Origin: a virus | Virus genome (UHGV): UHGV-0350075 | Length of the DNA: 53,531 nucleotides | Reading direction: 5' to 3' (one strand) | Shown here: piece after piece, positions 5,664 to 32,292 of the stretch | Layout of the letters: each line of letters starts with the position of its first letter | Numbering within the stretch: position 1 is the first letter of the stretch | The notes under the pieces: model-generated | Told to the model about the DNA's origin: nothing | Database searches by the model: none | The model's input: the letters and a program-made list of their open reading frames with translations, nothing else | Made by a program: the position numbers and the translations under genes

Positions 5664-5954
5664 TTAATGATAGCGGACTTTATCCAGGGGTTTTTCCCCT
5701 AAATGTCGTGGTTGCGTTGCGTGGTAGTAGCTGCCGCTTTCATTTTCCGTATACCATTTTACTGATCCTTTGCGACGTTCTTTAATGCTATTTGGTTTGC
5801 ATCTTTCCTCGTTTGCAAATCGAATAGCTTTATCCACATTGTCTGTTTTATTGATTGCAGGTGATGATTTTCTTTCGTTTTCTCTTTTTATCCTTCTGCG
5901 TTCCCTGGCATTCATTTTGCTATCACATTTACCATATATAATTGTAACGCTCAT
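5664..5954 (-). CDS. N-like transcription antiterminator (P22 gp24-like)
   Basis: 96 aa; arginine-rich motif NARERRRIKRENERK near N-terminus; first gene left of repressor. Confidence 0.5.
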   Translation of the reverse strand: MSVTIIYGKCDSKMNARERRRIKRENERKSSPAINKTDNVDKAIRFANEERCKPNSIKERRKGSVKWYTENESGSYYHATQPRHLGEKPLDKVRYH

Positions 5955-6048: not shown

Positions 6049-6422
6049 GCTTAACATCTTTCAACTAATCCCGCAATCATCGCCGTTCCCTGCGTGACCT
6101 TGCTCACTCCAAGCAAGCTGACTCGTCGCCTTGCGTGCGGTTTCGTGGGGGATGTAACGCTTTAAACACCCCATGCGCCTTGTTATCAGTGCCGCTTTCG
6201 GTCCCCAATCGGGGAGTTACTCCACGGTTGACAAGGTGTTAAGCCTGATTTTTAAAGTGCCAGGAAGTTGCTTTTGTTACCTGCGCCCTTCCTTTGACTC
6301 GCAATATACGCCCCGTAAAACATCGAGTCAATCCATTTTGTATACTTTTTTAAAATATTTTATATGTCATTGATATTTAAATAATAAATAACGTTTTCTG
6401 TTTACGTTTTGGTGTTTTCCAG

Positions 6423-6454: not shown

Positions 6455-7102
6455 TTATGGCAGGTTTACGATCTTCGCATCAACCACCACGCCTATAATT
6501 TTTGATTCTGGATTCATAGGGATTGGCGGATACAGCGGATTGAGCGAACGTAAAAGCCTTTGACCTCCATCAATAATCAACTGTTTAAACGTCGGTATCT
6601 GCCCTTCCTCAAGCTGGGCTATAACCAGTTTGCCGTCAATAGCTGGCGCGTGCGGGTCAACAAGTATCATCGTCCCCGCCGGGATGCTTAACCCCTGCGG
6701 CGCGTTCATTGATTCACCTTTGGCAACCAGCCAGTAACTATCATCTGAACAAATAACGCTAGTCGTAACGTGTGGTAATGCTGATCGCCTTGTGTCATCC
6801 ATATTGTTTACTGTGTCCTTCCAGTCAATAACCGGGTAACTACCTAAATCACGCGGCGGTGCGGCCTGAAGTGTATTAGAAACAGAATCATCAATGACCA
6901 TACCATCATGTGTAACAGTGAACTGACGACGCCCAAGCGCCCGCATAATCCGCGCAATATCTTCAAGATTTGGCTCGCGGCGACCGTTAAGCCAGTGTGA
7001 CAGGCCGCCTTTAGTTATCCCCATGAGATCTGCGAGTGAATCCTGACTCATGCCCTGCGCCCGCATGAGCTGCTTTGCTAAGTCATACCATTTTGTTTTC
7101 AT
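6455..7102 (-). CDS. cI: CI-type prophage repressor (HTH + LexA-like S24 peptidase domain)
   Basis: 215 aa; N-terminal HTH, C-terminal GESM...K autocleavage-type motifs; divergent from rightward operon. Confidence 0.85.
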   Translation of the reverse strand: MKTKWYDLAKQLMRAQGMSQDSLADLMGITKGGLSHWLNGRREPNLEDIARIMRALGRRQFTVTHDGMVIDDSVSNTLQAAPPRDLGSYPVIDWKDTVNNMDDTRRSALPHVTTSVICSDDSYWLVAKGESMNAPQGLSIPAGTMILVDPHAPAIDGKLVIAQLEEGQIPTFKQLIIDGGQRLLRSLNPLYPPIPMNPESKIIGVVVDAKIVNLP

Positions 7103-13997: not shown

Positions 13998-14215
13998 TGG
14001 ATAAGATCGGGACAATACTTATTAACCGTGAGCAAGTGCAAAAAATGTTAGGCGGGCTTAGCAAGTCCGCCTTTTTTAAGCTCGTTAAAAAATGGAAAGA
14101 AGCGGGAACTCCTTTCCCTGAACCTGTAAAGGGGATGCCAGCATTAAAGCGCGGGGGATCTCTTTACCGTTATCAGGACGTTATTTCATTTTGTAAATCG
14201 ATGGGCTTCATGTAG
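13997..14215 (+). CDS. putative excisionase-like HTH DNA-binding protein
   Basis: 72 aa; Xis/AlpA-like pattern (INREQVQKMLGGLSKSAFFKLVKK...); convergent with int, 3' ends overlap. Confidence 0.4.
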   Translation: MDKIGTILINREQVQKMLGGLSKSAFFKLVKKWKEAGTPFPEPVKGMPALKRGGSLYRYQDVISFCKSMGFM

Positions 14216-15372
14216 TAATCAGCCAGTTTATTCATCGCCTCGATTTGTTCCCTCACGTAATCATATTGATCATAGATAGCCATCATCCCCGCCAGTTTAT
14301 GACCCAAAACCTTTTCGGCTACGTGCGGCGCAACGCCAAGCGCTGAAAGGTTTGTCCTTACAGTGCGGCGTAGATCGTGACACGACCACGACTCGCCGCC
14401 CATCCTTAGCATCAAATCCCTTGCGGCTGTTTTCGGCACGCTCCTGTCTACCGCTTCATCCCTTCCAGAAAGCACTGGAACGAAGATAAAATTAAAGCCG
14501 TGCAAATCCATAGCTTCACGCAATAAACCTACGCTAACGTCGGATAAACCGCGCTTAAACTCATTTCTGTTCTTACTCAATGCACCCGGCACGGTCCACA
14601 CGCAGTTATCAAGATCGAAATGTTCGCGCCTTGCGTTTGTTAGTTCGCTTGTTCTGCATCCGGTGAATATAATCAGCTTCATCAATATCTGATTTAGCCG
14701 CGCCATTTTTGAACTGTCTATAATGCTGATTAGATGGTGAATCTCTTGTATTGATAAGACGCGTTTCCTTTGCGCCGGGTTTTTGCCTACGTCTTTCACG
14801 CGTAGCAATGATATGTCGTCACGCTCCACGCGGCGGCGTCGCATGGCATATTTTATCACCGCCTTCATCCTGTTTAAGACTATCCCTGCCTGAACGGGCG
14901 CGCCACCATTAGCTACCTTTCTAAAAATCCCCTCCCACATTATGGAGTCCATATCATCGACGATATAGCTACCGCATGGTCTGACAATGTGCTTACTTAG
15001 CATCGCCTCGACTTGCTTATAGTTGACCATGTTTCTTGCCTGCGGTGATTCCATGTACTCCATAACAATATCTTCAATCGTTGCCCGTGTCGTAACGCGG
15101 GACAAGTTCATTCTTTTTACGATCGATGGATCTCGCCCTGAGTTTAAGACTTCCTTATGCTCCGCCACCGCCGCGCGGGCTTCTTTGAGTGTTATTTCTC
15201 CGTAAGTGCCAATCTTCATCCGTCGCGGCTTGCCGTTGAATCGGTAGCGATACTGAAAAGATATAACGCCGTGCGGGCTTATCCTGGCAGACAATCCGCC
15301 CGCGTCCGGGACTTCTTTCGGGCCGTCATATGGCTTGCCGTGGATGTTTCGTAATTTGGTATCTGTAAGCAT
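14173..15372 (-). CDS. int: tyrosine integrase (P4-like family)
   Basis: Track ORF trimmed to ATG 15372 (MLTDTKLRN...); C-terminal HDLRRT and conserved Tyr region; upstream extension runs through an att repeat. Confidence 0.85.
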   Translation of the reverse strand: MLTDTKLRNIHGKPYDGPKEVPDAGGLSARISPHGVISFQYRYRFNGKPRRMKIGTYGEITLKEARAAVAEHKEVLNSGRDPSIVKRMNLSRVTTRATIEDIVMEYMESPQARNMVNYKQVEAMLSKHIVRPCGSYIVDDMDSIMWEGIFRKVANGGAPVQAGIVLNRMKAVIKYAMRRRRVERDDISLLRVKDVGKNPAQRKRVLSIQEIHHLISIIDSSKMARLNQILMKLIIFTGCRTSELTNARREHFDLDNCVWTVPGALSKNRNEFKRGLSDVSVGLLREAMDLHGFNFIFVPVLSGRDEAVDRSVPKTAARDLMLRMGGESWSCHDLRRTVRTNLSALGVAPHVAEKVLGHKLAGMMAIYDQYDYVREQIEAMNKLADYYMKPIDLQNEITS

Positions 15373-15374
15373 AA

Positions 15375-15396
15375 TTTGGTCACTATTTGGTACACA
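15375..15396. repeat. direct repeat copy 1 (TTTGGTCACTATTTGGTACACA)
   Basis: Identical 22-mer recurs at 15607..15628; candidate integrase arm-type site. Confidence 0.5.
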
Positions 15397-15606
15397 CATT
15401 TTACGCATGGATAGTATCACGATAGAAAACGATATGACACGATAGAATAAATATTTCTTTTAAAATCAAGGTGAAGTGGTGACGATGTGACACGATGTGA
15501 AATGATAGAAATGGCGTTATCCGCTTATCTTTTGAATGGATAACTTAATGAAAAATTCATTTGTATTCAGTGTGTTATGTTTTGTTTTTGTTTTTGATTT
15601 ATCATT

Positions 15607-15684: not shown

Positions 15685-18600
15685 TTATTTTTCGCTTCCG
15701 GTCAACTGCCGGACAAGCGCTTCAAGTTTAGTGATCCGCTCATCCATGACGGCAATGTTAGCGCGTAAGCTGGCGTTTTCTTCCTCCAGTTCGGTGACGC
15801 GGTTATCTGTTTCGCGTGCCACCTGGACAAGTAAACCAGTCACTGCCGCATAATCAACGTTTAGGTAACGCGTTTCTTCGCGTAGCTCGTTGCCGTCAAT
15901 GGTCGGGCCTTGTAATGCTTCACCGTAATGAGTAAACGATCCCACTGCTTCCGGTAGCGCCTCCATGACCTCCTGAGCGATAACGCCAGCGTAAGGCAGG
16001 CCATTTTCCTTAAGCGTGTAGGTGTACCCGTTCATTTTACGGATTGCTTCAGTAGCATCGCCTATAACCTGAATGTTGTCCTTCAGGTCGCGGTCTGAAG
16101 ACTGGTTTACTGTTACGCAGTTTACAGCCCCGTTAACCTGAAAATGACATGAATCATCCGTGTTTTGCTGCGCGTAAAAAATCCATGAAAGTGACGCGTT
16201 TGTGTCTGGATCTTTTATCTTGCACTCAAATACAGTTGGGCGGCTTTCTGCACCCCACAAATAAAGCTCACCATTTCTTACCGCTGAATTTGCGACGGCT
16301 AAAGTTACTTTTCTTGTGTAAGTATCAGAGAAAAACTCCGTCGATTTAAATTGTTGGTATCCAGTCCACCTTTGCGAAGATGCGTTAAGCGTAGCAAGTT
16401 GACACCAGCCTTTATCTACTCCGCCCTCAAAACTTCTGGCGTAGAATTTTGAATTACGTCCGACGAATTGGGTGGCGTAGTTACCGCTAAAGCCAACATG
16501 AAAGCCGCCATAAACTACATTATTTTCCGGTGTATTTGTTTGACCAGCAATAGGTTTAAACTTGCTTACGTTGTCTGATTGTTGTGCGTTCCAGTCTTGA
16601 TCTGTATATGTTGCAACTCCGTTAGCTGGCTGTATAGTTCCGTTTGATTTGATAACCTGATAAGAATCACCATATTTATTGCGGTATGTATCAGTGCAAT
16701 AAAACCCTGTTGCACTCGATGTGAAATCAAGTAAGTTATTGCTAATGCCGTAAGTGTCTAAATCAATACCATCAGAGGAATTAGTGATACCCCATTTATA
16801 AGTCGGGCTATCTGCTGTGTTAGTTGGCTTCCAGTCTGCTGTAGGTATTGTTACAGTACATCCAACCGTAACAGCGATGCGAATGGGGAAGGCATCACCG
16901 CGAACATAGATCGCGTTATGCGGATACTGCCCTTTATCAGTACCGCGAACGCAAAGTATCGCGTTTTCATTGTTTGCGTAACAGAAATAATGACCAAATA
17001 CAGCCGCACCCATATCTGACCAGCCACCATCACGTAACCATAAATGAATTGCGTTACAGTTAGGATCTCCACTGCCAGATATTGACTTAGTTCTCATTGC
17101 AACTTCAACAAGGAAATCGCCGTTATAGTGTGAAGGATGGCTGACAATTACAGGGTAATATTTACCAGCTTCAGCACCAGTAGGGGCGTTGTAATCAACC
17201 CAATGCGCAATACCTGCAAACGGGATTTGCATATTGGTTTTAGTTTGTTCAAGGTTTGTAGGTACTGCAATTGCATTGACTTTCAGGTTAGGTACTTCTA
17301 TTTCATCCCTTGCATAGTTGTAGCTCATTGAATAGCTTGTATTCGTACCGTCATATCCGTCTTTCTGAATACGCCAGTTACCACCATCAAAGATAAGGCT
17401 ATAGTAAGGTGTATTTGATGGCCGATCCGTTTCGTTGAATCTGATGGTAGGATGAGCGCTTGATATTTCTACGGGGTAATTAAAATTAGCTGTTAATCTT
17501 ACACGCCTACCTATAAAATCACCGCTATTTAAAGAAAAGTCGCCGTCTTCGCTTAATCCTGCGTATTGGTTTTTATCTCCACTCTGTAGGTGAATTGTGG
17601 CCCATGATTTACCATCGCCACGGAATTCTGAATAAAAACGCGCTCGCGCTCTTTGTGCGCCTGATGCATCATTAAGAATGCTTTGTAAAATACCGCCTGC
17701 CGTGGTTGCGACATCTGACGACCTAACAAGGTTAAGGTTTGTAAATTGCGGGCTATCAGTAAAATCAAGAGACTGAAATTTCTTCCATGCGGTCCACTCC
17801 CAACCAGAAGAGGAAGACTGAATGATGTGCTGGCGCATATAAAATGTACCAGTCGTGGCATTGTAAGGGAAATAAAGCTGCGTGCATCCTGCGTTACCGT
17901 TCGCATTATTTCTAATAACAAGCAATGCTCCCGCACTTGATACAGGATAACCGCGCGCAGTCGTGGCATTTACGTTTAACCCCTGGTAATAAAAACCGGA
18001 ATACTCGCCAGTAAGCGTATTAATATCTGTGGAACCTAGATCTGATTTTTTCTCATACATAACCTCAAGGTTTGTGCGTGCTTGTCCTGCGTTACCGCCA
18101 CCAGTGCCACCATAATTTAATCCCAATGGAAGCGGGCCTGATTCAGTTCTAGCTCCCCATGCTGCGTTACTTATGAATAGATAATTAGTTGATTCGCCAG
18201 CGTAAAGCTGCGTTTCAACTGTGTAGTTATAAAGCCTTGATACTTCGTCTTTTCTTACGTGCCTTGTCCATTGCGGTCCTATGCTGCTCGACCAACGATA
18301 GGTATACAGGGATCTTGTATTCCATCCCTGGAATATACCCGTATATGTAGGAGAACCATCGCAACCGCTAATAAAGCCTGTTAAGTACGCTTCACCTGAA
18401 GCAATGGACGGAAAACCAGTTGCCGATTCACGAATACGCATAAAGCCAATATAACCGGATGGATTGCCTGAAATGTCAGGACAATCGCGCGGCGATGCGC
18501 CAAGACCGATATTGTCGCCTACAATACCTTGCGCCTGGTTGCGATAGTTAAGCGCGGCGGCGGCGGATTGCGCCGCATTTGTCTCGCTGGTAGCTGCCGC

Positions 18601-19140
18601 CGTTTTACTGTTGCTTGCTGATGTTTCGCTGGCTTTTGCTGCATCCTGTGACGCTTTCGCTGCGGTGGCTGAGTTTGCTGCCGCTGTTTTTGATGCCGCT
18701 GCCGCGTTTTTATCTGATTCAGTTTTTTGAGCGTTGGCGGTTGATTGCGCTGTTTCTGCGCGAATGTCGGCAAGAAGCTGATCCATCTGACCATCTCCGC
18801 CGAAATCTTCCCACCACTCGACGGCGGCGGCGATCTCTGTTTCCTGGCCCTGATAGTAACGCAGTGTTTCGGCTACGTCCTGAGCAAGCCCATCAACTGA
18901 GATCGAGTCAGATAGCAGAATGCTAAATTTTGTCCCGGCAGGGATGGCAGGATTAGCCGCTGGCGTTACTGATAATTCAGTACCGCTCTTAATTTCGGTG
19001 ATAGTGAAAATCTGTACCGGATTTCCAATGGCAATGAGCGTGCACCCTACACGGATGAGAGAAAGCGGCGCGGAAAAGTTTGTTCCCGTACCTGTAACAG
19101 TATTGCCGCTAACGGCAATTGTTCCCGTTGTATAAATCAT
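15685..19140 (-). CDS. side tail fibre protein with C-terminal intramolecular chaperone (S74-like) domain
   Basis: 1151 aa; lambda Stf-like Ala/Ser/Thr-rich N-terminal repeats; C-terminus SDRDLKDNI plus coiled coil as in endosialidase chaperone domains. Confidence 0.8.
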   Translation of the reverse strand: MIYTTGTIAVSGNTVTGTGTNFSAPLSLIRVGCTLIAIGNPVQIFTITEIKSGTELSVTPAANPAIPAGTKFSILLSDSISVDGLAQDVAETLRYYQGQETEIAAAVEWWEDFGGDGQMDQLLADIRAETAQSTANAQKTESDKNAAAASKTAAANSATAAKASQDAAKASETSASNSKTAAATSETNAAQSAAAALNYRNQAQGIVGDNIGLGASPRDCPDISGNPSGYIGFMRIRESATGFPSIASGEAYLTGFISGCDGSPTYTGIFQGWNTRSLYTYRWSSSIGPQWTRHVRKDEVSRLYNYTVETQLYAGESTNYLFISNAAWGARTESGPLPLGLNYGGTGGGNAGQARTNLEVMYEKKSDLGSTDINTLTGEYSGFYYQGLNVNATTARGYPVSSAGALLVIRNNANGNAGCTQLYFPYNATTGTFYMRQHIIQSSSSGWEWTAWKKFQSLDFTDSPQFTNLNLVRSSDVATTAGGILQSILNDASGAQRARARFYSEFRGDGKSWATIHLQSGDKNQYAGLSEDGDFSLNSGDFIGRRVRLTANFNYPVEISSAHPTIRFNETDRPSNTPYYSLIFDGGNWRIQKDGYDGTNTSYSMSYNYARDEIEVPNLKVNAIAVPTNLEQTKTNMQIPFAGIAHWVDYNAPTGAEAGKYYPVIVSHPSHYNGDFLVEVAMRTKSISGSGDPNCNAIHLWLRDGGWSDMGAAVFGHYFCYANNENAILCVRGTDKGQYPHNAIYVRGDAFPIRIAVTVGCTVTIPTADWKPTNTADSPTYKWGITNSSDGIDLDTYGISNNLLDFTSSATGFYCTDTYRNKYGDSYQVIKSNGTIQPANGVATYTDQDWNAQQSDNVSKFKPIAGQTNTPENNVVYGGFHVGFSGNYATQFVGRNSKFYARSFEGGVDKGWCQLATLNASSQRWTGYQQFKSTEFFSDTYTRKVTLAVANSAVRNGELYLWGAESRPTVFECKIKDPDTNASLSWIFYAQQNTDDSCHFQVNGAVNCVTVNQSSDRDLKDNIQVIGDATEAIRKMNGYTYTLKENGLPYAGVIAQEVMEALPEAVGSFTHYGEALQGPTIDGNELREETRYLNVDYAAVTGLLVQVARETDNRVTELEEENASLRANIAVMDERITKLEALVRQLTGSEK

Positions 19141-19185
19141 CGCAATGACTCCATTATGTTAATTAACGGAATAATTCTACCATTT

Positions 19186-19201
19186 TGTGATCTGCGTTAC
19201 A
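19186..19201. promoter_or_regulatory. CRP-like site TGTGATCTGCGTTACA
   Basis: 8/10 match to TGTGA-N6-TCACA, 45 nt upstream of tail-fibre start; part of CCATTTTGTGATCTGCGT motif shared with 26624 and 31524. Confidence 0.35.
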
Positions 19202-23500: not shown

Positions 23501-24679
23501 GCGGGCGATACTTGAACGAGTAAACGCGCCATCAACGACATTTGCATTTGTAATGGTGGCGATCGGGTCTTGTGGTGCATCAATCATCACGGTAAGGCGT
23601 TGCCCGTCCCATAACGCGATACCCCTGAACATCCCGGCGATATTGTCCAGTAAGTCGCGGGCGCTCATTTGCTCTGTGATGTAGGCGTTAAGCGTCATGC
23701 GAGGCTCAAGGCCGCCGTAGCCATCATCAACCAACTGGTCGCAGTATTGAGAAAGCGTATATAATGCGCCGTCGTCAACGTCAATATAGCCAGCGTGACG
23801 AGCAAGGCCGAAACGCTCGTTTTTAACCAGATAGCGGAAGATCCATGCTGGGTTATTGGTGTACGCCTGTTTGAAGCCGCCAAGCCACAAACCGGAATAA
23901 GTGCGCTTTTCCGGGTCGTAGTTATCAGGAATATCAACAATCAGCCCGCGAAGGTGATAGGTGCGGGTAGGCGTGTCAGCGTACTGATCATGGTCAATTA
24001 CCGCGCCAGCTACAGCGGTGTGAGGATAAGACAAATTATCGTCGATTATTTCGCTGTAGCTACTCCATCGCGTATCATTCTGCAACAGATCGCTTGTGCT
24101 ATCAGCGGTTACACGGCGAACGCGAATATCAAACGGTTTTTCATCTGGTGCATTGATAATATGCGCTTCAAGATATTCTCCGCTGATCTTACCTGGGCCT
24201 ATAGTAACGTCTTTAACAAGCGTCCACGTAGAAGAAGACGAAGGCTTCACGTCAATCATCATCATAACCGATGTGTTATGTTGATTGCTTTGCTCGTCAG
24301 ATTGTACAAGTGAATCGACGCCGATATTCAGGCGAACGCGGTTTACGTTAGGATCGGAAACGGTCCTGATTATTGGTGTATCGTGTTTAACCTGTGCGTT
24401 AACAATAACGGTTGATTCAATGGCGTTAAAACCGTTAATCGGTGATTGATCTATCGTACCATTGCGCCACGCTACGCTAATACCGGGGATGCTGGTATTG
24501 CCGTTCGCGTCAGTTACAGGGGTGTCATTAAGCATTACGCTGTTTAATGGCGCATTGGTATTAACAGGACCATAAATCGGACCTTCTGAAATAATGTCGA
24601 GTACACGATAAAACTGTTTGTGATATAGATTATCGTTAATTAAAGTTGGTGTTTTTGCTTTGCCGCCGCCGCTACTCAT
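20528..24679 (-). CDS. J: host-specificity / central tail fibre protein (lambda J-like) with extended repeat-rich C-terminus
   Basis: 1383 aa; N-terminal ~900 aa collinear with lambda J as recalled (DIISEGPIYGPV, YHLRG, PAWIFRYL, SQYCDQ, GGLEPRMTLNAY); C-terminus differs. Confidence 0.85.
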   Translation of the reverse strand: MSSGGGKAKTPTLINDNLYHKQFYRVLDIISEGPIYGPVNTNAPLNSVMLNDTPVTDANGNTSIPGISVAWRNGTIDQSPINGFNAIESTVIVNAQVKHDTPIIRTVSDPNVNRVRLNIGVDSLVQSDEQSNQHNTSVMMMIDVKPSSSSTWTLVKDVTIGPGKISGEYLEAHIINAPDEKPFDIRVRRVTADSTSDLLQNDTRWSSYSEIIDDNLSYPHTAVAGAVIDHDQYADTPTRTYHLRGLIVDIPDNYDPEKRTYSGLWLGGFKQAYTNNPAWIFRYLVKNERFGLARHAGYIDVDDGALYTLSQYCDQLVDDGYGGLEPRMTLNAYITEQMSARDLLDNIAGMFRGIALWDGQRLTVMIDAPQDPIATITNANVVDGAFTRSSIARAECYNAVIVSWTDPGNGWEQSKEYVADDELIARDGYNETTLEAFGCTSRGQAYRAGKWLIETAKREPSKFTFKMARDAIHFTPGDIIEILDNNRAGARLGGRIVANNGKVITVDKVDSEYITAGDTISLLDSDGKFKKHQITGVNGNEITLAASPAWIRNGTVFAVSTEAAKPVLCRITSVAETENNSVYTIEAAQHDPNKQAIVDEGAIFEVNNDTLNHFRVPNIENLKVVNIGSETVQCRATWETQTTTHRMTFEIRIYNADGAVVKSYETTKYSYDFYGIDAGVYSLGVRGRNDTGMKGAESIVDLVIGAPAAPIGVNWVPGVFQATVYPISKTTLTTDTAYEFYYAGENQITDPAKITTAAQFTGRGYQWTFGGMNTGHTYYVYVRTRNAFGVSDFVEASGKPTENFDEISDYVTKDVMNSEQFKEMVSDIKDLGDRTDIIESATEDLKTATDDLKTATDDLKTDTDALKKDTEDLYKKVEENADEIGKHEIRIDSLEVSSENVDNELAQTKASLQNASLALINNSLAQTNTRVTLTAQYKKGRSETKAQIDRIDNVIADEKQATAEALETITAEMNTMDSNIKGEIARVDKAIANETQARTEAISNVNASISTLESSTTASVNRLDQAIADESAARAQAISGVNASISTLDSKVTSNITRIDKAIADETQARTEAISGVNASISSLENKTDASVSRLDKAIADETSARTEAISGVNASISTLDSKVTSNVTRIDKAIADETKARTDAIISLNSSLTSTINSKVSEVSTALSTHEASSAEKFSQISASFEAVNSSITEWSQTMTTADEALSTKIDQLTVTVNGNTTAIETTSKALTDFKGNVDASWSIKIATDNNGKKYATGMSLGLTGSGTNVQSQCIFLVDRFVLMTAANGTYQSPFYVTNGAIYVREAFIKDASITNAKIGSYIQSNNYVSNSTGWKLDKSGTFENYGSVSGEGAMKLTNTTISVRDGNGRLRVQIGRITGSW
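21240..22150 (-). repeat. coding tandem repeats in J 3' region (~108-bp units x5; 21-bp units x3 at 22088..22150)
   Basis: Repeated units RIDKAIADETQARTEAISGVNASISTLDSKVTSN and DLKTATD seen in protein and DNA; forward-strand shadow ORFs arise here. Confidence 0.6.
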
Positions 24680-25900: not shown

Positions 25901-26605
25901 TTAACCTACCTTGCTGGAACCAGGGAAACAGGAAATCGGTAACGGATTTGGACGCGGGAAACGCAAACGACAACCGCTTAGACGGTGGCTGCATCTGTCG
26001 GCTTTAGGATCGCTTGTCGGCTCGTCTTTATCGTTTGCTACTGGTCCGCCAGCGTACATACACCCGTCGCCTCTGTATTGCCACTGGCAAACGTCAGCAA
26101 GGATGGTGCGCCCAGGGATAACGGCCTTATCAGCATCAATTGGCGTTGACAGCTCATATTGCACCTGATCCGCTGTTTCCTCGCTCATGGCCTCCACGAC
26201 GTAAAAAGATACAGCCTCAATAGATGGATCTGCATCTGGATTGCCGTTTGGGAAGTTAACGGCGTCCAGGTATTTTACTTCCACCTGGCGGCGCGTAACC
26301 TTCATTCCTCGCAGGTCGTTGAAGTCGTTATTCATCCCTGTGATTAGCCCGCCGATATTGGCTACAACCATTTGAGGCCGCGAATAAACGCCCTCGTTTT
26401 TCATTTCGAAGCCAGTAGCCTCGATCGGGTAGCTGTTGTAAGTTAATCCCTTCCAGATAACCGGGCCGTAATAGCCATTCGCGCCGGAATGGAAGCGGAT
26501 AACCTCGCCACCCAGGGGCGACAAGTCCAGTTCGAACAAGTCAATCACCGCGCCCACACCAGCGTCCACGGAATCAATAATCATCTCTGTAGGTATATTG
26601 CGCAT
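25901..26605 (-). CDS. L: minor tail protein (lambda L-like)
   Basis: Track ORF starts on GTG 26638 inside a regulatory palindrome; ATG 26605 with AGAAGGTGAG SD preferred; CxWxYRGxxC motif (CQWQYRGDGC) as in lambda L. Confidence 0.75.
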   Translation of the reverse strand: MRNIPTEMIIDSVDAGVGAVIDLFELDLSPLGGEVIRFHSGANGYYGPVIWKGLTYNSYPIEATGFEMKNEGVYSRPQMVVANIGGLITGMNNDFNDLRGMKVTRRQVEVKYLDAVNFPNGNPDADPSIEAVSFYVVEAMSEETADQVQYELSTPIDADKAVIPGRTILADVCQWQYRGDGCMYAGGPVANDKDEPTSDPKADRCSHRLSGCRLRFPRPNPLPISCFPGSSKVG

Positions 26606-26623
26606 TTTCTCACCTTCTGATTT

Positions 26624-26639
26624 TGTGATCTGCGTCACG
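26624..26639. promoter_or_regulatory. CRP-like site TGTGATCTGCGTCACG
   Basis: 9/10 match to TGTGA-N6-TCACA, immediately upstream of L SD. Confidence 0.4.
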
Positions 26640-26734
26640 CTAAATCATACCAAAATGGATTGATCGCGGTTTATACAATATGTATATTTTACTCAAACGG
26701 AAGCACAGTTAACAAAATGGCGCGGAGGTGTGAG

Positions 26735-26890
26735 ATGGCTGATAAGGTGTGGAGGTTGAAGGTATTCCTGTCAGGTGGCAGGGAAATGACTGTAGCTCTG
26801 TATAAAGACGAAGGCGAGGCACTGACTGACGCGCTATTACTCGCTGAAGACGAACGCGTTTTGGGGTACAGAATCGAACCTGTCAAATGA
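26735..26890 (+). CDS. hypothetical protein (moron islet A)
   Basis: Track ORF trimmed to ATG 26735 after GGAGGTG SD; opposite strand to tail operon. Confidence 0.4.
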   Translation: MADKVWRLKVFLSGGREMTVALYKDEGEALTDALLLAEDERVLGYRIEPVK

Positions 26891-26902
26891 GAGGTTAACG
26901 AA

Positions 26903-27250
26903 ATGCAAAAATATAGTCTTGATGTGTGGTTAAGTGGTTGCAAGGAGTGTTTCGGATTATTTGATAGCGAAGAGGCAGCTTTGGAAGAAGGAAGGATTCT
27001 TGAATGTAGTTTAGGCCATCCAGTGAAATATGCCGCTAATCCGGTGCAGATAATTGATGAGGTGGAAAACATGAATCCGAAAGATATTAACTTTAACGTC
27101 AATGTTGAATTTGCAGACTCTATGGATCAGGCTTGCCCTGGTGAAATCCACGCAAAAGGCTTCCCGGCTGACGATCCTGAAGCAAAACGCGAATACGAAA
27201 ATGCTGCTAAAGACTTCTGTATCGATAATTTAAGTTGCTTTGATAAATAG
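26903..27250 (+). CDS. hypothetical Cys-rich protein (moron islet A)
   Basis: Track ORF 115 aa; GAGAGG SD. Confidence 0.45.
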   Translation: MQKYSLDVWLSGCKECFGLFDSEEAALEEGRILECSLGHPVKYAANPVQIIDEVENMNPKDINFNVNVEFADSMDQACPGEIHAKGFPADDPEAKREYENAAKDFCIDNLSCFDK

Positions 27251-27258
27251 GCGGCAAC

Positions 27259-27507
27259 ATGGGGCGGCGCAATCACGGTGATTATGTGTACACGTTGAAA
27301 CAGGCCGCCCGCCTCATCGGTTATCATGAACACGAATTTATTGATTTGCTGATTGAGCGCGGGATACTGTATCAGGTCTGCTTAACGCTGTACCCGAAAG
27401 CGAAATACCTACAGGAAAAGTTATTCATCATCATGACGGATGAAAACCAGGTGAATCATTCATTCGTCACTGATAAGGGATTGACATACCTGAAGGGGGC
27501 GTTATGA
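27259..27507 (+). CDS. putative HTH DNA-binding protein (moron islet A)
   Basis: 82 aa; HTH-like YTLKQAARLIGYHEHEFIDLLIERGIL. Confidence 0.4.
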   Translation: MGRRNHGDYVYTLKQAARLIGYHEHEFIDLLIERGILYQVCLTLYPKAKYLQEKLFIIMTDENQVNHSFVTDKGLTYLKGAL

Positions 27508-27584
27508 GATGTGCGAAAATTACGTTATGGAAGTGATTATTATCATCATTGGATTGTTATGTATTCTGCTATCGACACTATAAA

Positions 27585-27601
27585 CCCCGCTTCGCGCGGG
27601 G
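27585..27601. terminator. bidirectional hairpin terminator
   Basis: CCCCGC-ttcgc-GCGGGG with T-rich flanks on both strands, between convergent islet A and reverse-strand gene. Confidence 0.4.
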
Positions 27602-27607
27602 TCGTGT

Positions 27608-27808
27608 TTATACGCCATCAAGCAAAAATAATACTTCCCTACCCTCTCTCGATCTGCATCCGACATACCCGTCACCAACATCATGAAGATACCAGATCTC
27701 GCCATTGTCTGCCTTTACAGTAAGATCTTTAATTTCATAGTCGTCAAACAATGTAAAAGCGCCAGTGCGGTCCACTACACAAATACCATACATATTAACC
27801 TCCATCAT
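27608..27808 (-). CDS. hypothetical protein
   Basis: Track ORF 66 aa; start overlaps M stop (ATGA). Confidence 0.45.
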   Translation of the reverse strand: MMEVNMYGICVVDRTGAFTLFDDYEIKDLTVKADNGEIWYLHDVGDGYVGCRSREGREVLFLLDGV

Positions 27809-28158
27809 CTGACGACTTGCTCAAATGTTGCGTTTAGCGTGTACAAAGACCCGTCTTTAGTCATGCTCCATCGGCGGCAAACAAAAAGCCTTTGCACGTT
27901 ATCCATCGACGGCGACCAGTAAAAAGCCTCGACCGCGCCGCGCGCCCTCAAGAATGCTTCCGCCTGGATTGCTACGTTTTCACCATCACCACATCCGGCG
28001 CTACTGCCTTTAAATACCAGGGTGTAGCTATCAAGCAATGGATTGATGCCTTTTACCTGTCTTTGCTCATAACCATCGCCCAGCTTAACAACGGATACGT
28101 CCGGCTCCCTGGTCACGCTGTAGCTTCGTTGTGGCGTCCACCTGAACACTTCCGGCAT
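27805..28158 (-). CDS. M: minor tail protein (lambda M-like)
   Basis: 117 aa; FRWTP...VKLGDGYEQRQ resembles lambda M N-terminus (FRWKV...VRFGDGYSQRA). Confidence 0.7.
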   Translation of the reverse strand: MPEVFRWTPQRSYSVTREPDVSVVKLGDGYEQRQVKGINPLLDSYTLVFKGSSAGCGDGENVAIQAEAFLRARGAVEAFYWSPSMDNVQRLFVCRRWSMTKDGSLYTLNATFEQVVR

Positions 28159-28190
28159 AAAACCCCCATAAGTTACATTTTGTATATATA

Positions 28191-28215
28191 TTTACGCGCT
28201 TCTACGCGAAAAATG
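28191..28215. promoter_or_regulatory. conserved 25-bp box TTTACGCGCTTCTACGCGAAAAATG
   Basis: 22/25 identical to box at 40378..40402 upstream of portal; lies upstream of M. Confidence 0.4.
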
Positions 28216-28326
28216 AGATCTTCATCACAATGATTATAGCTAGTTTACAAAATGGCTTCACATAGTACGCAACAAGATGTATATAGAAAGCAAGAAGAAA
28301 AGCAGTACCAACGAAGGAGGCCCAAA

Positions 28327-28482
28327 ATGAAACGCTATGTAGTGGTAATGCTAAACAACGCATTCGAACAAGTGGAAATAGCAATCGTTAAGGGTTTCGA
28401 CGACGCATTCAAATACGGTCAATTCATGATGAATGCAAAAGAAGATGAATACCGGGACTTCTTCCTGAAGGCACTTAACTAA
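28327..28482 (+). CDS. hypothetical protein (moron islet B)
   Basis: Track ORF trimmed to ATG 28327 after AGGAGG SD; candidate sigma70 promoter TTCACA-17-TATATA upstream. Confidence 0.45.
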   Translation: MKRYVVVMLNNAFEQVEIAIVKGFDDAFKYGQFMMNAKEDEYRDFFLKALN

Positions 28483-28499
28483 GGATGATGGGGTGAGTT

Positions 28500-28754
28500 A
28501 TGAAACTGGTAGCGATTGACAAAAATCTGAAAGCACAGAAAAACGCGCCGGGACATGTAGTCAAAAAAGCAAAGGAACTTTTGAACGCGTTTTTAAACAA
28601 GAATGCGTCACCCAAAAAATTGAAAGACGGTTACGGCTACGCCTTCCGCGCCAATTTAGACTGGCGAGTCTATAGCCAGGATCTGAAAGAGTGGGTGATT
28701 GTTGAACACCATAAATTCAATGAATTGTCTGGCGTTCGCGGTTGCCATAAGTGA
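28500..28754 (+). CDS. hypothetical protein (moron islet B)
   Basis: Track ORF 84 aa; basic; 17 nt after previous gene. Confidence 0.45.
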   Translation: MKLVAIDKNLKAQKNAPGHVVKKAKELLNAFLNKNASPKKLKDGYGYAFRANLDWRVYSQDLKEWVIVEHHKFNELSGVRGCHK

Positions 28755-28872
28755 GGTGGGTATGGAGGACGATAAATTCACCTGGAGGGAGATCTGGAAT
28801 ATTTGGTTGGTGATGTTTTCTCGCAGCTATATAGCCAGAAACGGAAGATTGTAATTTGCGGAGGAAAACAAA

Positions 28873-29043
28873 ATGAAAAATCCGGCAAATAAAAGCAACG
28901 TAAAACGCATAGCATGGGTGCTAAAATATATGGATAGCAAAGGGGATACATATACATGCCCATTTTCCAGGTATACTGATGCGGTATTTGCCAGAAGTGT
29001 ACACGGAGGGAAAATTGAAAGAGGATATACAAGATTTGAGTAA
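28873..29043 (+). CDS. hypothetical protein (56 aa, moron islet B)
   Basis: Own translation MKNPANKSNVKRIAWVLKYMDSKGD...; GGAGGAAAACAAA upstream. Confidence 0.3.
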   Translation: MKNPANKSNVKRIAWVLKYMDSKGDTYTCPFSRYTDAVFARSVHGGKIERGYTRFE

Positions 29044-29081
29044 ATTTATTCACGAAATCAATAACATAATGAAGGTTTATA

Positions 29082-29261
29082 ATGATTATTCATGAGACTG
29101 AAGAATGCAGAAGGATTGATCTTAGTGTTGAAGATGACGGAAGATTATGGATCGTGAGCGACTGCGAGATGATTGTAATAGACAAAAAGCAAGCTGACGA
29201 ACTGATAAGAGCATTACAGCTTTATGCAAACGGCGAATTTAAAAATGATGAAATTGAATAA
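29082..29261 (+). CDS. hypothetical acidic protein (59 aa, moron islet B)
   Basis: Own translation MIIHETEECRRIDLSVEDDGRLWIV...; ends 5 nt before terminator. Confidence 0.3.
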   Translation: MIIHETEECRRIDLSVEDDGRLWIVSDCEMIVIDKKQADELIRALQLYANGEFKNDEIE

Positions 29262-29266
29262 AAATA

Positions 29267-29295
29267 GCCCCGGCATTGTGCCGGGGTTTTGTTTA
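29267..29295. terminator. bidirectional intrinsic terminator
   Basis: GCCCCGGC-attgt-GCCGGGG then TTTTGTTTATTT; between convergent islet B and tape-measure gene. Confidence 0.55.
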
Positions 29296-31506
29296 TTTCC
29301 TGCGAGGTTGCAACATTCCGCCAGGTCTGGATGATTCGCGGTGCATCAGGCCCATGCAGATCCTTTCCATGTCCTGTTGTAGCTTTTTGGCATCCTCATC
29401 GCTCCATCCATTTTGTGGGTAAACACTAATCGGCGCGTTTATGCTAACGCTACCACCACCAGCACCGCCAATGTCGCGATTTGGTATTACCCTGCCGTTG
29501 TCACCCGGAATCATGTACTGACTCCCATTGCTCGCCTGAAAGATCTCCGGTTTACCGTGTTCGCCGACCTTATAGAGGCTGCCCGCAGCCACCGCACCGC
29601 CGTTATAACGAGCGCCAGCCAAGCCAAGCGCTTTTGCTCCAGCCACACCAGTGGCAAGACTCGTACCCCCCACGGTCGCCGCGCCGCCCATCGTGGCAAC
29701 GTTTGCCAGGTATGCAGGAGTAGCCCACGCAGATCCCAAAGCGGTAGCCTCTGCCAATGCTTTAGCTGTTGCGGCTGCGCTGGCGGCCTCACCTATCAAT
29801 TGCTGCTTGACCCATTCAGCCCCCATTTGAACAAGCGTACCGATAACGGAGGAAAGGATTGTATTGCCAATGTTAGCCAGCGCCTGTTGCCAGCTTTGAG
29901 TGCCGTTAACCAGGCCGACGAGCGCATTTGTTGCAGAACCGCTCATTGCATCAACGGCATCACCTAACAGTTGGTTGCTCATTGACTGCGCCTTATATCG
30001 CTCCCATTCAAGGGTGAGCATTTCCTGTGCGTGCGCCCTTTCTTGCTCCCTCATATATTGTTCGGTAGCGCCCAAATCGGTAAGCATTTGCTTGCGAACG
30101 GTCCATTCATTTTGCGCCTGCTGTATTGGGTCTAGTTCACCGCGCTTCTGATCCAGTGATGGAATCATTTTGTCCCATTTTTCTTGCAGCCTATTGATCG
30201 GGTCGTTAATTTCCGCCAGAGTTTCGCGCAATTCATCACCAATTCCCTTCATTGCACCTTTGTATTCAAGCATGGTTATTTTCCCGGCTTTAAAGGCTGC
30301 ATCTATGGCTTTTTGTGATTCAAGCGCTTTGCGCATTGCTGCTGAATCTTCGTTATATGTATCTGAAATGCGCACACCCTGTTCCGCAAGGCGCTCGGCT
30401 TCTGATTTGCCGGATTTTTTACCTTTCCTGCCTTTGCCCTTACCAGGAGGTTGAGGCTTAAATGTTATGTGACTTACACCAGCTTGCCCCGTGGGGAGAG
30501 TAGAAACAAATGGCTGTTCTCCATCGCCAAACCATCCAACCTGTTTCGCTTGAGCGCGGAACAAACTAAGCCCAGGCACTATACCCTCAAACGCCCCAGC
30601 CAATAGCCACAATTTGTCAGTTAATGACGTGCTGTCGCTCGCCAGGGACTTAAACCAGCCGGATAATATTTGGACCTCACTAGAGATAGCTTGTATACCA
30701 GTAACCACCAAATCGGACACGCCAAGCGTTTGGTTTAGCGTGTCGATTAGCAGATCGAAGTTGTTTTTTAGCTCGTTAAATGCCTGATCTGTTGTTGTTG
30801 GCAGCTTTGCGAAGTCCTTCTCTATGTCTTCTGCGCCAGCAAGAATTGCGTTGGTAACGTCCTCGGCTGTTAACTTACCATCAAGCATTCTTGCGCGAAG
30901 TTCGCCCATCGAGATTCCCATTTGTTTGGCTACGCGCCGCCACACCTCTGGCATATTTTCAAGCACAGAATTGTATTCTTCCGCGCGAACAATGCCGCCC
31001 GTCAGTGACTGCCCTAACTGGCGAAGTGCGTTTGACATTTCATCTGAGGAGCTACCGCCGATACGCCCTATTTTTTGAAGCGAGTCGGTAAGCTGCAATA
31101 CCTGCTGACTTGTCGCGCTGGTATCCTGAAGGCTGGCCTTTAGGCTTTCCCACAGCTTCCCGGTGCTTTGAACGCTCATCCCTGTACGATTCGATATCTG
31201 AATAATCCCGTCAAAATTCGATTTTGCGTCAGCAATGCCACTCGATAATCGCGTCACCCTGGCGCGTAGCAGATTCACGTTATCTGCGATCTCCAGGAAT
31301 TTTTTTGCAGCCATGACCATCATTCCAATGTTCACGGCTTTGGATAAATTACTTATCGTGGTGTTAAGTGACTGAACTGATTTATCTGTGCGTTTAGCGC
31401 CTTGCTCGATTTTATCAAGCGAGTCCTCCGCCTTGCGTTGAGCTACGAGTAACCGTTCGGTTTTTGCGTCAACGGTATACTCAATCGTGCCTACATTTGT
31501 GGTCAT
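29293..31506 (-). CDS. tail tape measure protein
   Basis: 737 aa; helical/coiled-coil, Gly/Ala-rich C-terminal part; between chaperone-position gene and M. Confidence 0.8.
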   Translation of the reverse strand: MTTNVGTIEYTVDAKTERLLVAQRKAEDSLDKIEQGAKRTDKSVQSLNTTISNLSKAVNIGMMVMAAKKFLEIADNVNLLRARVTRLSSGIADAKSNFDGIIQISNRTGMSVQSTGKLWESLKASLQDTSATSQQVLQLTDSLQKIGRIGGSSSDEMSNALRQLGQSLTGGIVRAEEYNSVLENMPEVWRRVAKQMGISMGELRARMLDGKLTAEDVTNAILAGAEDIEKDFAKLPTTTDQAFNELKNNFDLLIDTLNQTLGVSDLVVTGIQAISSEVQILSGWFKSLASDSTSLTDKLWLLAGAFEGIVPGLSLFRAQAKQVGWFGDGEQPFVSTLPTGQAGVSHITFKPQPPGKGKGRKGKKSGKSEAERLAEQGVRISDTYNEDSAAMRKALESQKAIDAAFKAGKITMLEYKGAMKGIGDELRETLAEINDPINRLQEKWDKMIPSLDQKRGELDPIQQAQNEWTVRKQMLTDLGATEQYMREQERAHAQEMLTLEWERYKAQSMSNQLLGDAVDAMSGSATNALVGLVNGTQSWQQALANIGNTILSSVIGTLVQMGAEWVKQQLIGEAASAAATAKALAEATALGSAWATPAYLANVATMGGAATVGGTSLATGVAGAKALGLAGARYNGGAVAAGSLYKVGEHGKPEIFQASNGSQYMIPGDNGRVIPNRDIGGAGGGSVSINAPISVYPQNGWSDEDAKKLQQDMERICMGLMHRESSRPGGMLQPRRK

Positions 31507-31523
31507 GATTGTTACTCCACTTT

Positions 31524-31539
31524 TGTGATCTGTGTATCT
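31524..31539. promoter_or_regulatory. CRP-like half-palindrome TGTGATCTGTGTATCT
   Basis: Left half TGTGATCT conserved, 18 nt upstream of tape-measure start; CCATTTTGTATAAAG copy at 31572. Confidence 0.3.
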
Positions 31540-31764
31540 ATTTTATACAAATTGTCTTTACTATAACGACTCCATTTTGTATAAAGAGGCTAAAGGAAAG
31601 GGATAGAGTAAAGGGATTTAAAATGACCGGATAAACCGGAGGAAGTAAAAGAGGACAAGAAAATGAAAAACGCAAACTATCGTCCCAACGAACATGAACG
31701 CTATGCGGACTTCATAGAAGAAATGTTAAAAGCACTTAAAAACAAAAATTAATCGAGGCGGGTT

Positions 31765-32262
31765 ATGAAACTGTTAGTAAAAGTTGCGGTAGCTGCGGTC
31801 ATGGCGGTATTCGCGGCCAATGCAAATGCAAGTAATGAAGTTAGCAAGATGTGCGACGCTATTTATCCAGCCTACGAAAAAGCATATACAATGGCAAATG
31901 TAAACTTCTTTTCAATTGGTAGGCACGGCGTTAACTGGGAGTATTTCATCTTAAATGAAGATAGCAGGACCAAAAAAGGTGACGCTGAAATGATAAAAGC
32001 GCACGGTGAAAGTTTCGCTTTCGTGATGGCTGCTGCTGAAAACAAACAAAATGATAATGAATTTAAAAACTTTGTCGCTGGACTTGCCATCATGGCTGCT
32101 GAACGGGCGATAAAAGATCACGACAATAACGCTTATGCCGCTGCCGACGGGATGGCGTTAGATAGGGTAAGAATTGACTTCAAAAACATGTGCGTCAAAG
32201 AAGGTGCTAACATGTATAAAAAAGCAATAGATAAACACCACGAATATTCTATAGGTTATTAA
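31765..32262 (+). CDS. secreted/periplasmic protein of unknown function (moron)
   Basis: 165 aa; signal peptide MKLLVKVAVAAVMAVFAANANA; opposite strand; followed by terminator. Confidence 0.55.
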   Translation: MKLLVKVAVAAVMAVFAANANASNEVSKMCDAIYPAYEKAYTMANVNFFSIGRHGVNWEYFILNEDSRTKKGDAEMIKAHGESFAFVMAAAENKQNDNEFKNFVAGLAIMAAERAIKDHDNNAYAAADGMALDRVRIDFKNMCVKEGANMYKKAIDKHHEYSIGY

Positions 32263-32265
32263 AAA

Positions 32266-32292
32266 GGCCCGGATCTACCGGGCTTTTTCTTG
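32266..32292. terminator. intrinsic terminator after secreted-protein moron
   Basis: GCCCGG-atcta-CCGGGC followed by TTTTTCTT. Confidence 0.5.

Follow-up and report, generated by a model that had tools for sequence, protein, structure and literature searches.

A forward-strand cassette with a predicted stand-alone KilAC domain inside the tail operon of an mEp021-type coliphage

Three small forward-strand genes, g51, g115 and g82 (with products of 51, 115 and 82 aa), lie inside the reverse-strand tail operon of the virus genome UHGV-0350075, between the tail genes L and M. The whole 53,531-nt stretch (hereafter, the window) was analysed, and the reading that we prefer, with our confidence divided about evenly for and against it, is that this islet would be a self-contained accessory operon of the moron type, encoding host-directed effectors and not tail machinery. 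The cassette seems accessory, rather than a component of the tail, because it runs on the opposite strand, is absent from the prophage of E. coli MS 21-1 and from the tail modules of other genera, and its proteins are not labelled as virion or structural proteins in the mass spectrometry-based annotation of phage mEp021. In the scenario that we propose, the cassette would have entered the M-L junction in an ancestor common to the mEp021 (mEpimmI) group and, while remaining losable, been kept almost everywhere since then. Its transcription would proceed rightward from a conserved sigma-70-type promoter in the spacer between L and the islet and end at an invariant hairpin, which would also close the converging M-g66 unit and keep the islet transcript out of M, and its products would be host-directed effectors made outside the late programme.

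The window was recognised as the complete, circularly permuted genome of a temperate siphophage of E. coli of the mEp021 (mEpimmI) type, a group of coliphages prevalent in the gut that was reported in 2025 with the proposal of a new family (PMC11893012). The integrase gene is found mid-window (14173..15420) and the gene order is a rotation of that in the mEp021 record, so the window looks like a circularised, complete 53.5 kb phage genome and not like a prophage with host flanks. In the L-M region, identity was 95% to Escherichia phage MagusPhagus and 86–90% to mEp013, mEp021, mEp554, mEp010, mEp515, and mEp044. The Pfam models Phage_tail_L (1.4e-71) and Phage_min_tail (6.3e-28) confirmed L and M, respectively, and L most likely starts at the ATG at 26605, as annotated in its relatives, and not at the GTG at 26638.

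An earlier note, made from the letters of the window, had described three forward genes of these lengths inside the reverse-strand tail operon, and their exact coordinates (Table 1), substitution ratios, and homologs bear this out. The open reading frames (ORFs) are real genes, as their ratios of nonsynonymous to synonymous substitution rates (dN/dS) are low, the GC skew changes sign across the islet, and homologs were present in every relative inspected. Median pairwise dN/dS values were 0.15 for g51, 0.19 for g115, and 0.08 for g82, versus 0.04–0.05 for L and M, a pattern that points to purifying selection on all three. The islet is opposite in strand to the surrounding minus-strand run J-I-K-L ... 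M-H, its genes are separated by only 12 nt (g51-g115) and 8 nt (g115-g82), and sequences similar to Shine-Dalgarno (SD) sites precede g51 and g115. The note had proposed to look for a deviation in GC content and for matches in defence databases, and neither was found: the GC content of the islet, 0.445, falls at the 32nd percentile of 773-nt windows (window mean 0.462 ± 0.032), which is not the composition expected of a moron, and the PADLOC defence-system models gave zero matches for the islet proteins. Similarly, searches of NCBIfam and of PDB sequences returned nothing for any of them, and no toxin-antitoxin (TA) family model from Pfam, NCBIfam, or PADLOC matched g51, g115, or g82. Sequence matches to HepS and RecA (E 0.2–0.7) were dismissed as noise.

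The cassette was found at the L-M junction in all seven sequenced phages of the group (7/7), whereas matches to it were present in 35 of 5426 complete E. coli genomes, and about 35 of the 36 E. coli prophages carrying this tail module have it, including the strongly diverged ones of KKa019 and O157:H7 LSU61. Even around the most diverged g115 homologs found (42–55% identity), the order small gene, g115, KilAC gene is preserved, and in mEp021, whose cassette comprises gp71-74, and in UMNK88 a fourth gene is located between g115 and g82. The cassette thus appears to be old and almost fixed in the lineage, and not a recent, variable acquisition. The sole prophage without it, that of E. coli MS 21-1 (L023), lacks exactly the segment corresponding to positions 26719..27796 of the window, that is, g51, g115, g82, the hairpin, and g66; L and M are 124 nt apart, and the whole control region and the next cassette are kept. 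This state is most simply explained by a deletion, as the closest relatives carry the cassette.

For a wider comparison, we used the nearest tail modules of other Enterobacterales, ten in number, with L genes 67–72% identical. M and L are adjacent in three of these modules and separated by 330–520 nt with unrelated small ORFs on either strand in six, whereas no M homolog was found in the tenth; none of the ten contained homologs of the islet genes. Together with MS 21-1, these modules indicate that the M-L junction is a hot spot for cargo and that the cassette is dispensable for building the tail. The claim of the earlier note that this is accessory cargo in a moron position therefore stands as far as loss in MS 21-1, absence from other genera, and a promoter-like site and a hairpin of its own are concerned, and fails as far as recent, variable acquisition was implied by it, since the islet is nearly fixed. 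Nor are its genes core tail-assembly genes in all relatives, the outcome that the note had set against its own proposal.

It is highly improbable, in our estimate, that the islet has a core morphogenetic or regulatory role, being needed for the expression or assembly of the tail, for instance through activation by g82 of the divergent L-K-I-J promoter. The near-universal presence of the cassette in the lineage, the ranking of a KilAC-like gene as core in a published pangenome of 48 genomes (PMC11893012), and the control region shared with L would fit such a role. However, the MS 21-1 prophage dispenses with the cassette while keeping the control region, other genera have related tail modules that function in its absence, and both its strand and the absence of a virion label in mEp021 speak for cargo.

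The product most informative on function is g82, the most conserved gene of the cassette. The earlier note had regarded none of the products as recognisable, which no longer holds for this one: g82 matches the Pfam family ANT/KilAC (PF03374) with 28.7 bits versus a gathering cutoff of 25.3 (E 1.8e-6), its residues 10–79 aligning with profile positions 23–102 of 108, and the same family is precomputed on g82 homologs. We read g82 as a stand-alone KilAC/ANT domain protein. The sequence TDKG at residues 71–74, corresponding to the TxKG signature, is invariant, and AARLIG at 16–21 fits loosely the "AKxLxL" motif noted for CreP and P1 KilA. Between the g82 model and winged-helix DNA binders of the MerR/Xis kind there is a weak similarity, and no g82 relatives were found in GTDB with one genome per species.

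Precedents for such domains are available in other elements. The isolated KilAC domain of AriS, from a Listeria phage, inhibits the SOS response (PMC9043618); the growth-inhibitory effect of Phi11 Gp07 is carried by its KilA-type domain (PMC5944126); and CreP, a stand-alone KilAC protein of 103 aa, has a bacteriostatic effect, makes cells of Acinetobacter and E. coli filamentous, and co-precipitates weakly with FtsZ (bioRxiv 10.1101/2024.01.05.574328). Following these precedents, g82 would act as a modulator of growth, division, or SOS. CreP (Acinetobacter baylyi) and g82 have in common a single KilAC domain without N-terminal partner, the TxKG signature, and a phage origin. In contrast, g82 is shorter (82 versus 103 aa), its gene follows those of two acidic proteins within a phage tail operon, and the islet contains no CRISPR-guided repression. 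Phage Ant proteins with KilAC share the same Pfam domain, which in them acts on host physiology (SOS inhibition, filamentation), but g82 consists of that domain alone, without AntA/B, Bro-N, or Rha, and identity to them is only 30–41%.

The other two products are related to each other. The N-terminal domain of g115 (aa 1–50) is predicted as beta-beta-alpha-beta, with an AlphaFold2 predicted local distance difference test (pLDDT) above 90, and a variable linker joins it to the acidic, nearly invariant C-module (consensus ADSMDQxCPGEIHAKGFPADDP..DFCIDNL); residues 51–115 have a pLDDT of about 50 and are disordered by prediction save for one helix, yet their sequence is nearly invariant. The acidic g51 (pI 4.9; phrog_29559) is a paralog of the g115 N-domain, aligning end to end over 46 columns (hhalign probability 92.7%, E 4e-7; BLASTP E 0.001), and it is diverged or replaced in some relatives such as LSU61. 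It has no Pfam or NCBIfam match. Its homologs are named "transporter" by the Prokaryotic Genome Annotation Pipeline in many E. coli genomes (e.g., WP_065225619.1), which looks like a propagated misannotation; this name was rejected, as there is neither a Pfam or NCBIfam model nor a transmembrane feature behind it. Among relatives, at least three deeply diverged allele types of the g115 N-domain were found, with dS saturated in the N part and of only 0.03 in the C part (window versus MLI107). A recombination joint inside g115 follows from this, because the N part is saturated while the C half is near-identical in the same gene pairs, and the N-domain types would be old alleles swapped by recombination. 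Positive selection on the N-domain was considered and rejected (dN/dS 0.07–0.34 with saturated dS).

The description of the 115-aa product as "Cys-rich" in the earlier note turned out to be a feature of the allele, as only C78 and C106 are invariant among 46 sequences, and the second of them is absent from a stand-alone C-module homolog (P0118). A zinc-finger or Cys-rich metal-binding protein was likewise rejected, no conserved set of at least four Cys/His ligands being present. The g115 family comprises 58 clusters, all from E. coli or phage metagenomes, and only 13 matches were obtained among 1.84e9 (1.84 billion) representatives, so that it appears practically confined to the mEp021-type phage group. 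The exceptions are free-standing proteins of 56–64 aa made of the C-module alone (consensus YDIDN..F..ADSMDQxCPGEI..DFCIDNLGxFDK), encoded in large uncultivated phages; no KilAC-like gene adjoins them in the neighbourhoods inspected. The C-module would then act independently in large virulent-type phages, with the N-domain as an exchangeable part, and g51 and g115 would be either a second pair of effectors, with a host or defence target, or modulators tempering g82. No defence, TA, Acr, or other functional model matched g51 or g115, and fold searches gave only generic small alpha/beta matches.

These features also suggest a TA-like or abortive-infection module acting from the prophage, in which g82 would be a bacteriostatic toxin, g115 an antitoxin with a labile, disordered toxin-binding tail, and g51 a truncated, modulating paralog. 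We judge this unlikely, although CreP is itself a stand-alone KilAC protein and the toxin of a repressed toxin module (bioRxiv 10.1101/2024.01.05.574328). The layout predicted for g115, an ordered N-domain with a conserved, disordered acidic C-tail, resembles that of an antitoxin (pI 4.3 versus 7.9 for g82), conservation is highest in its C part and in g82 (dN/dS about 0.08), which always adjoin with g115 coming first, and a ParE-like toxin after a 51-aa acidic ORF in the neighbouring cassette indicates that TA cargo occurs in this operon. Nevertheless, neither PADLOC, Pfam, nor NCBIfam gave a TA or defence match, the free-standing C-modules of other phages have no KilAC neighbour, and the N-domain of g115 does not show a DNA-binding fold.

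The gene order resembles, in addition, that of operons of anti-CRISPR (acr) and anti-CRISPR-associated (aca) genes, where a small, conserved helix-turn-helix-like protein comes after small acidic ones that vary, under a promoter of their own and within a structural gene cluster. In an anti-defence operon of this type, g51, g115, and the extra genes of relatives would be variable inhibitors and g82 a conserved helix-turn-helix autoregulator at the 3' end. The variation from three to five genes across relatives, the deeply diverged and recombining N-domain alleles, the weak winged-helix likeness of g82, and the early-type promoter with its flanking repeated elements are compatible with it. We nonetheless hold it to be quite improbable, as the islet proteins match no known Acr or Aca in sequence or fold, dN/dS stays under 1 everywhere with no positive selection seen, and the repeated 9-mer and CRP-like palindrome described below occur genome-wide and are thus not private operators of g82; moreover, KilAC domains have documented non-DNA activities (PMC9043618; bioRxiv 10.1101/2024.01.05.574328). 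The absence of homology of g82 to Aca, and of g51 and g115 to Acr, was observed in general family and structure searches, generic fold aside, in which no dedicated Acr/Aca library was used.

Returning to the accessory operon that we favour, its control is predicted to reside in the 129-nt spacer on the L side, which is better conserved than the flanking coding DNA and shares regulatory sites between cassette and tail genes. Sixteen copies of the 9-mer MCAAAATGG (extended form GTwTACAAAATGG) were counted in the window versus 1.6 expected, and nine in mEp021 versus 1.4 expected (37.8 kb); those of the window are mostly intergenic, immediately upstream of -35 positions, and without dyad symmetry. 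Combined with a -10 as ACAAAATGG-N23-GTATAxx, the 9-mer is found eight times versus 0.2 expected. The best match in the genome to the islet promoter and leader is a promoter at 6265-6343(-), with a local score of 44 versus 14.3 ± 2.3 for shuffled sequences (maximum 30), which is located downstream of a CI-like repressor gene (6455..7102) and upstream of nutR1, a nut-like site (boxA/boxB-like), and of an N-like gene (5664..5954). The islet promoter would then be a copy of the phage's own early promoter type and not an imported private one. It is in the leader element CAGTTAACAAAATGG that the MS 21-1 deletion has its left breakpoint (26718).

Palindromes of the form TGTGA-N6-TCACA, with at most one mismatch, were found at nine sites in the window versus 1.2 expected, three of them perfect. 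Most are no more than 40 nt away from a 9-mer, and for four, that in front of the repressor gene included, the distance downstream of the 9-mer is exactly 31 nt and the palindrome abuts the -10; no full palindrome was found at the early promoter 6341(-). In the palindrome of the control region, the half-sites are fixed and the 6-nt spacer variable across nine relatives, the footprint expected for a dimeric binding protein. The palindromes may serve either as genuine CRP sites or as operators to which a phage protein binds. That beside the islet promoter would overlie the divergent L-side promoter: it is located just downstream of the minus-strand GTATGAT, a layout repeated at four other promoters, including that of the repressor gene. 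This putative -10 overlaps the forward 9-mer, with the same geometry as in the divergent pair of H and the third cassette described below. No RNA families of Rfam were detected in 26300-29400.

Several points weigh against the reading that we favour. The predicted islet promoter has 9/12 matches in a sigma-70-type consensus scan, a score that alone is no better than chance, so its assignment depends on conservation (the sequence is invariant in relatives) and paralogy, and not on the score. The MS 21-1 prophage may be defective, and the near-fixation of the cassette could imply a function more central than "accessory". In our comparison, the KilAC activities cited belong to distant homologs in other hosts, while g51 and g115 appear to have no informative sequence or fold match.

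Regarding the timing of expression, the phage has a Q-like gene, and antiterminated late transcription should silence the cassette, because the islet and M-g66 are transcribed towards each other and the late transcript is antisense to the islet. The moron layout and the cargo of the neighbouring cassettes (a ParE-like toxin in the second, a signal-peptide protein in the third) suggest expression in the prophage, whereas the paralogy with the early promoter and the presence of the C-module in virulent-type phages suggest early lytic expression.

Morons of lambdoid phages, as Juhala and colleagues and Hendrix and colleagues are said to have described them in 2000, are autonomous promoter-gene-terminator units between late genes (HK97 gp15, lambda lom/bor). 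The islet resembles them in being a small insertion that separates two neighbouring tail genes and brings along a promoter-like site and a terminator-like hairpin; related tail modules do not have it, and it can be lost within the lineage. It differs from them in being antisense to the late operon, in having three to five genes, in being nearly fixed in the group, and in showing no compositional deviation; its promoter would be a copy of the early type belonging to the phage itself, and the regulatory sites are shared ones. In T4-type phages, PeSL (promoter early stem-loop) cassettes reportedly consist of shuffled small genes flanked by an early promoter and a stem-loop (work attributed to Arbiol and colleagues, 2010). 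Here, too, a repeated early-type promoter on one side and a stem-loop on the other enclose units of small genes, promoter copies are present at several places in the genome, and the breakpoint of the MS 21-1 deletion is within a repeat copy; in contrast, the phage is a temperate siphophage, the units are antisense to the late operon, and repeat recombination is suggested by one breakpoint only.

At the edges, the bounding of the islet by the control region and a bidirectional hairpin, as put forward in the earlier note, was confirmed by the conservation of both in relatives. Eight relatives have the hairpin stem unchanged, mEp021 has an inverted loop on a stem that is kept, and the element is annotated in this phage as TERM_11/TERM_12, with weak U-tracts on both strands. 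The islet does lie between L and M, as the note had stated, but M is not its direct neighbour, since g66 intervenes between the hairpin and M. This gene belongs to the same insert, as it was lost together with the islet in MS 21-1 and is absent from other genera. An 18-aa hydrophobic mini-ORF, present in this form without SD in the window, MagusPhagus, and E. coli 09-00049, occupies the position of a 45-aa hydrophobic ORF (MKIEVLALIIMGLIVFGIHA...) with a good ribosome-binding site in mEp010, mEp021, MLI107, and L025, and it is probably a remnant of the latter.

Table 1. Features of the islet, its surroundings, and related sites. Positions refer to the window, except where one of our own locus handles (L003, L019, L021, L025) precedes them.
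Feature	Position	Strand	Details
L	to 26605	-	tail gene; followed by K, I, J
Control region, L-islet	26606..26734		129 nt; long invariant blocks in alignment of 8 relatives
CRP-consensus-like palindrome	26624..26639		TGTGATCTGCGTCACG; centred about -63 relative to islet promoter; over start of putative L-side promoter
Putative L-K-I-J promoter, -10-like	26644..26650	-	GTATGAT; from sequence reading and analogy with 31547(+)/31580(-)
Islet promoter (predicted)	26650..26688	+	9-mer CCAAAATGG 26650-58; -35 TTGATC 26660-65; 17-nt spacer; -10 TATATT 26683-88
Leader element	26706..26720	+	CAGTTAACAAAATGG; second 9-mer copy; inverted copy of CAGATCACAAAAT in L leader
g51	26735..26890	+	51 aa
g115	26903..27250	+	115 aa
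g82	27259..27507	+	82 aa
Mini-ORF	27527..27583	+	18 aa, hydrophobic (MEVIIIIIGLLCILLSTL); no SD
Bidirectional hairpin	27584..27602		ACCCCGC-TTCGC-GCGGGGT; -16.8 kcal/mol (+), -19.0 kcal/mol (-)
g66	27608..27808	-	66 aa, acidic; phrog_3249; start overlaps stop of M; conserved
M	27805..28158	-	tail gene
Second forward cassette	28159..29292	+	between M and tape-measure gene H
Genes of second cassette	28327..28482; 28500..28754; 28873..29043, 29082..29261	+	51-aa acidic; 84-aa ParE-like; small ORFs
H	29293..31506	-	tail gene (tape measure)
Third forward cassette	31507..32274	+	between H and next tail gene; 29-aa ORF and 165-aa protein (31765..32262)
Paralogous promoters	6265..6343 (-) and 26646..26722 (+)		in common: 9-mer, TTGAyy-17-TATATT, leader TCAAAsGGAAG..CAGkTAACAAAA
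9-mer, examples	6333, 7176, 10223, 19180, 26650, 26712, 28247, 31572, 47034, 52183, 52247		
Composite sites	before islet; 28247; 31547; 31580(-); 6341(-); 47034(+); 2227(+)		28247, second cassette; 31547, third cassette; 31580(-), H
CRP-like 16-bp sites	2267, 7128, 19186, 26624, 28214, 47074, 52223		
CAGATCACAAAA copies	26620..26632, 31521..31532, 19183..19194		
45-aa hydrophobic ORF	L003 5121..5258; L025 3946..4083		L003, mEp010_107; unannotated in mEp021
Free-standing C-module	L019 6001..6195		JGI 3300045988, 119-kb contig; among about 20 small co-directional genes beside tRNAs
Free-standing C-module	L021 755..946		downstream of PhoH-like gene

Two further forward cassettes were found in the same operon, on either side of the tape-measure gene H. 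In the second, the product of the 84-aa gene matches the family ParE_like (PF24732) above cutoff (1.2e-7) and probably forms a TA pair with the 51-aa ORF in front of it; this 51-aa protein was also tried as a member of the g51 family and rejected (hhalign probability < 1%). The 9-mer at 28247 is followed 23 nt later by GTATATA, a CRP-like palindrome is located at 28214..28229, and a strong bidirectional terminator is predicted at 29266..29288 (-22.7 and -17.3 kcal/mol). Past the ParE-like gene, the content of this cassette differs between relatives. The 165-aa protein of the third cassette has an N-terminal signal peptide and no family match, and between this cassette and H there is a divergent, overlapping promoter pair, ACAAATTGT-N23-GTATAAA at 31547(+) and ACAAAATGG-N23-GTATAAA at 31580(-), in which each 9-mer overlaps the -10 on the opposite strand.

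A bolder proposal, to which we assign a low probability, combines these elements into a new KilAC-based TA or abortive-infection module, in which the g115 tail would restrain KilAC and the N-domain, with g51, would sense a variable trigger; the three antisense cassettes, with the ParE-like pair and the secreted protein, would share promoter type and CRP-type operators as a regulon active until the collision with late transcription.

Accessory cassettes in late operons are already well known and the islet is not surprising in itself; the more useful leads are the paralogy and modularity of g115, three antisense cassettes that appear to be co-regulated, and, for a new phage family, a promoter/operator system not described before. 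The 2025 paper on the mEp021 group is silent on antisense cassettes in the tail operon and on promoters and operators, the 9-mer not being described nor the operators defined (PMC11893012), and the sites collected here constitute a first map of regulatory sites for the group. If our reading is right, the tail operon of the group harbours, at three of its junctions, a fixed set of host-directed genes under copies of a single promoter type, with a bare KilAC domain among their products, and a culturable phage makes KilAC function accessible in E. coli K-12.

Two additional observations concern the tail operon. The 12-mer CAGATCACAAAA (minus-strand reading) precedes, by 10–50 nt, the start codons of L, of H, and of a gene for a 1151-aa fibre (15685..19140), and a variant of it, CAGTTAACAAAA, is present in the leader of the islet, as a candidate shared leader or operator half-site. 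Finally, in mEp021 an HNH endonuclease gene (gp78; L001 713..1279) is located between tail genes I and J, whereas the window does not have this gene, and J directly follows I at 24679/24694.

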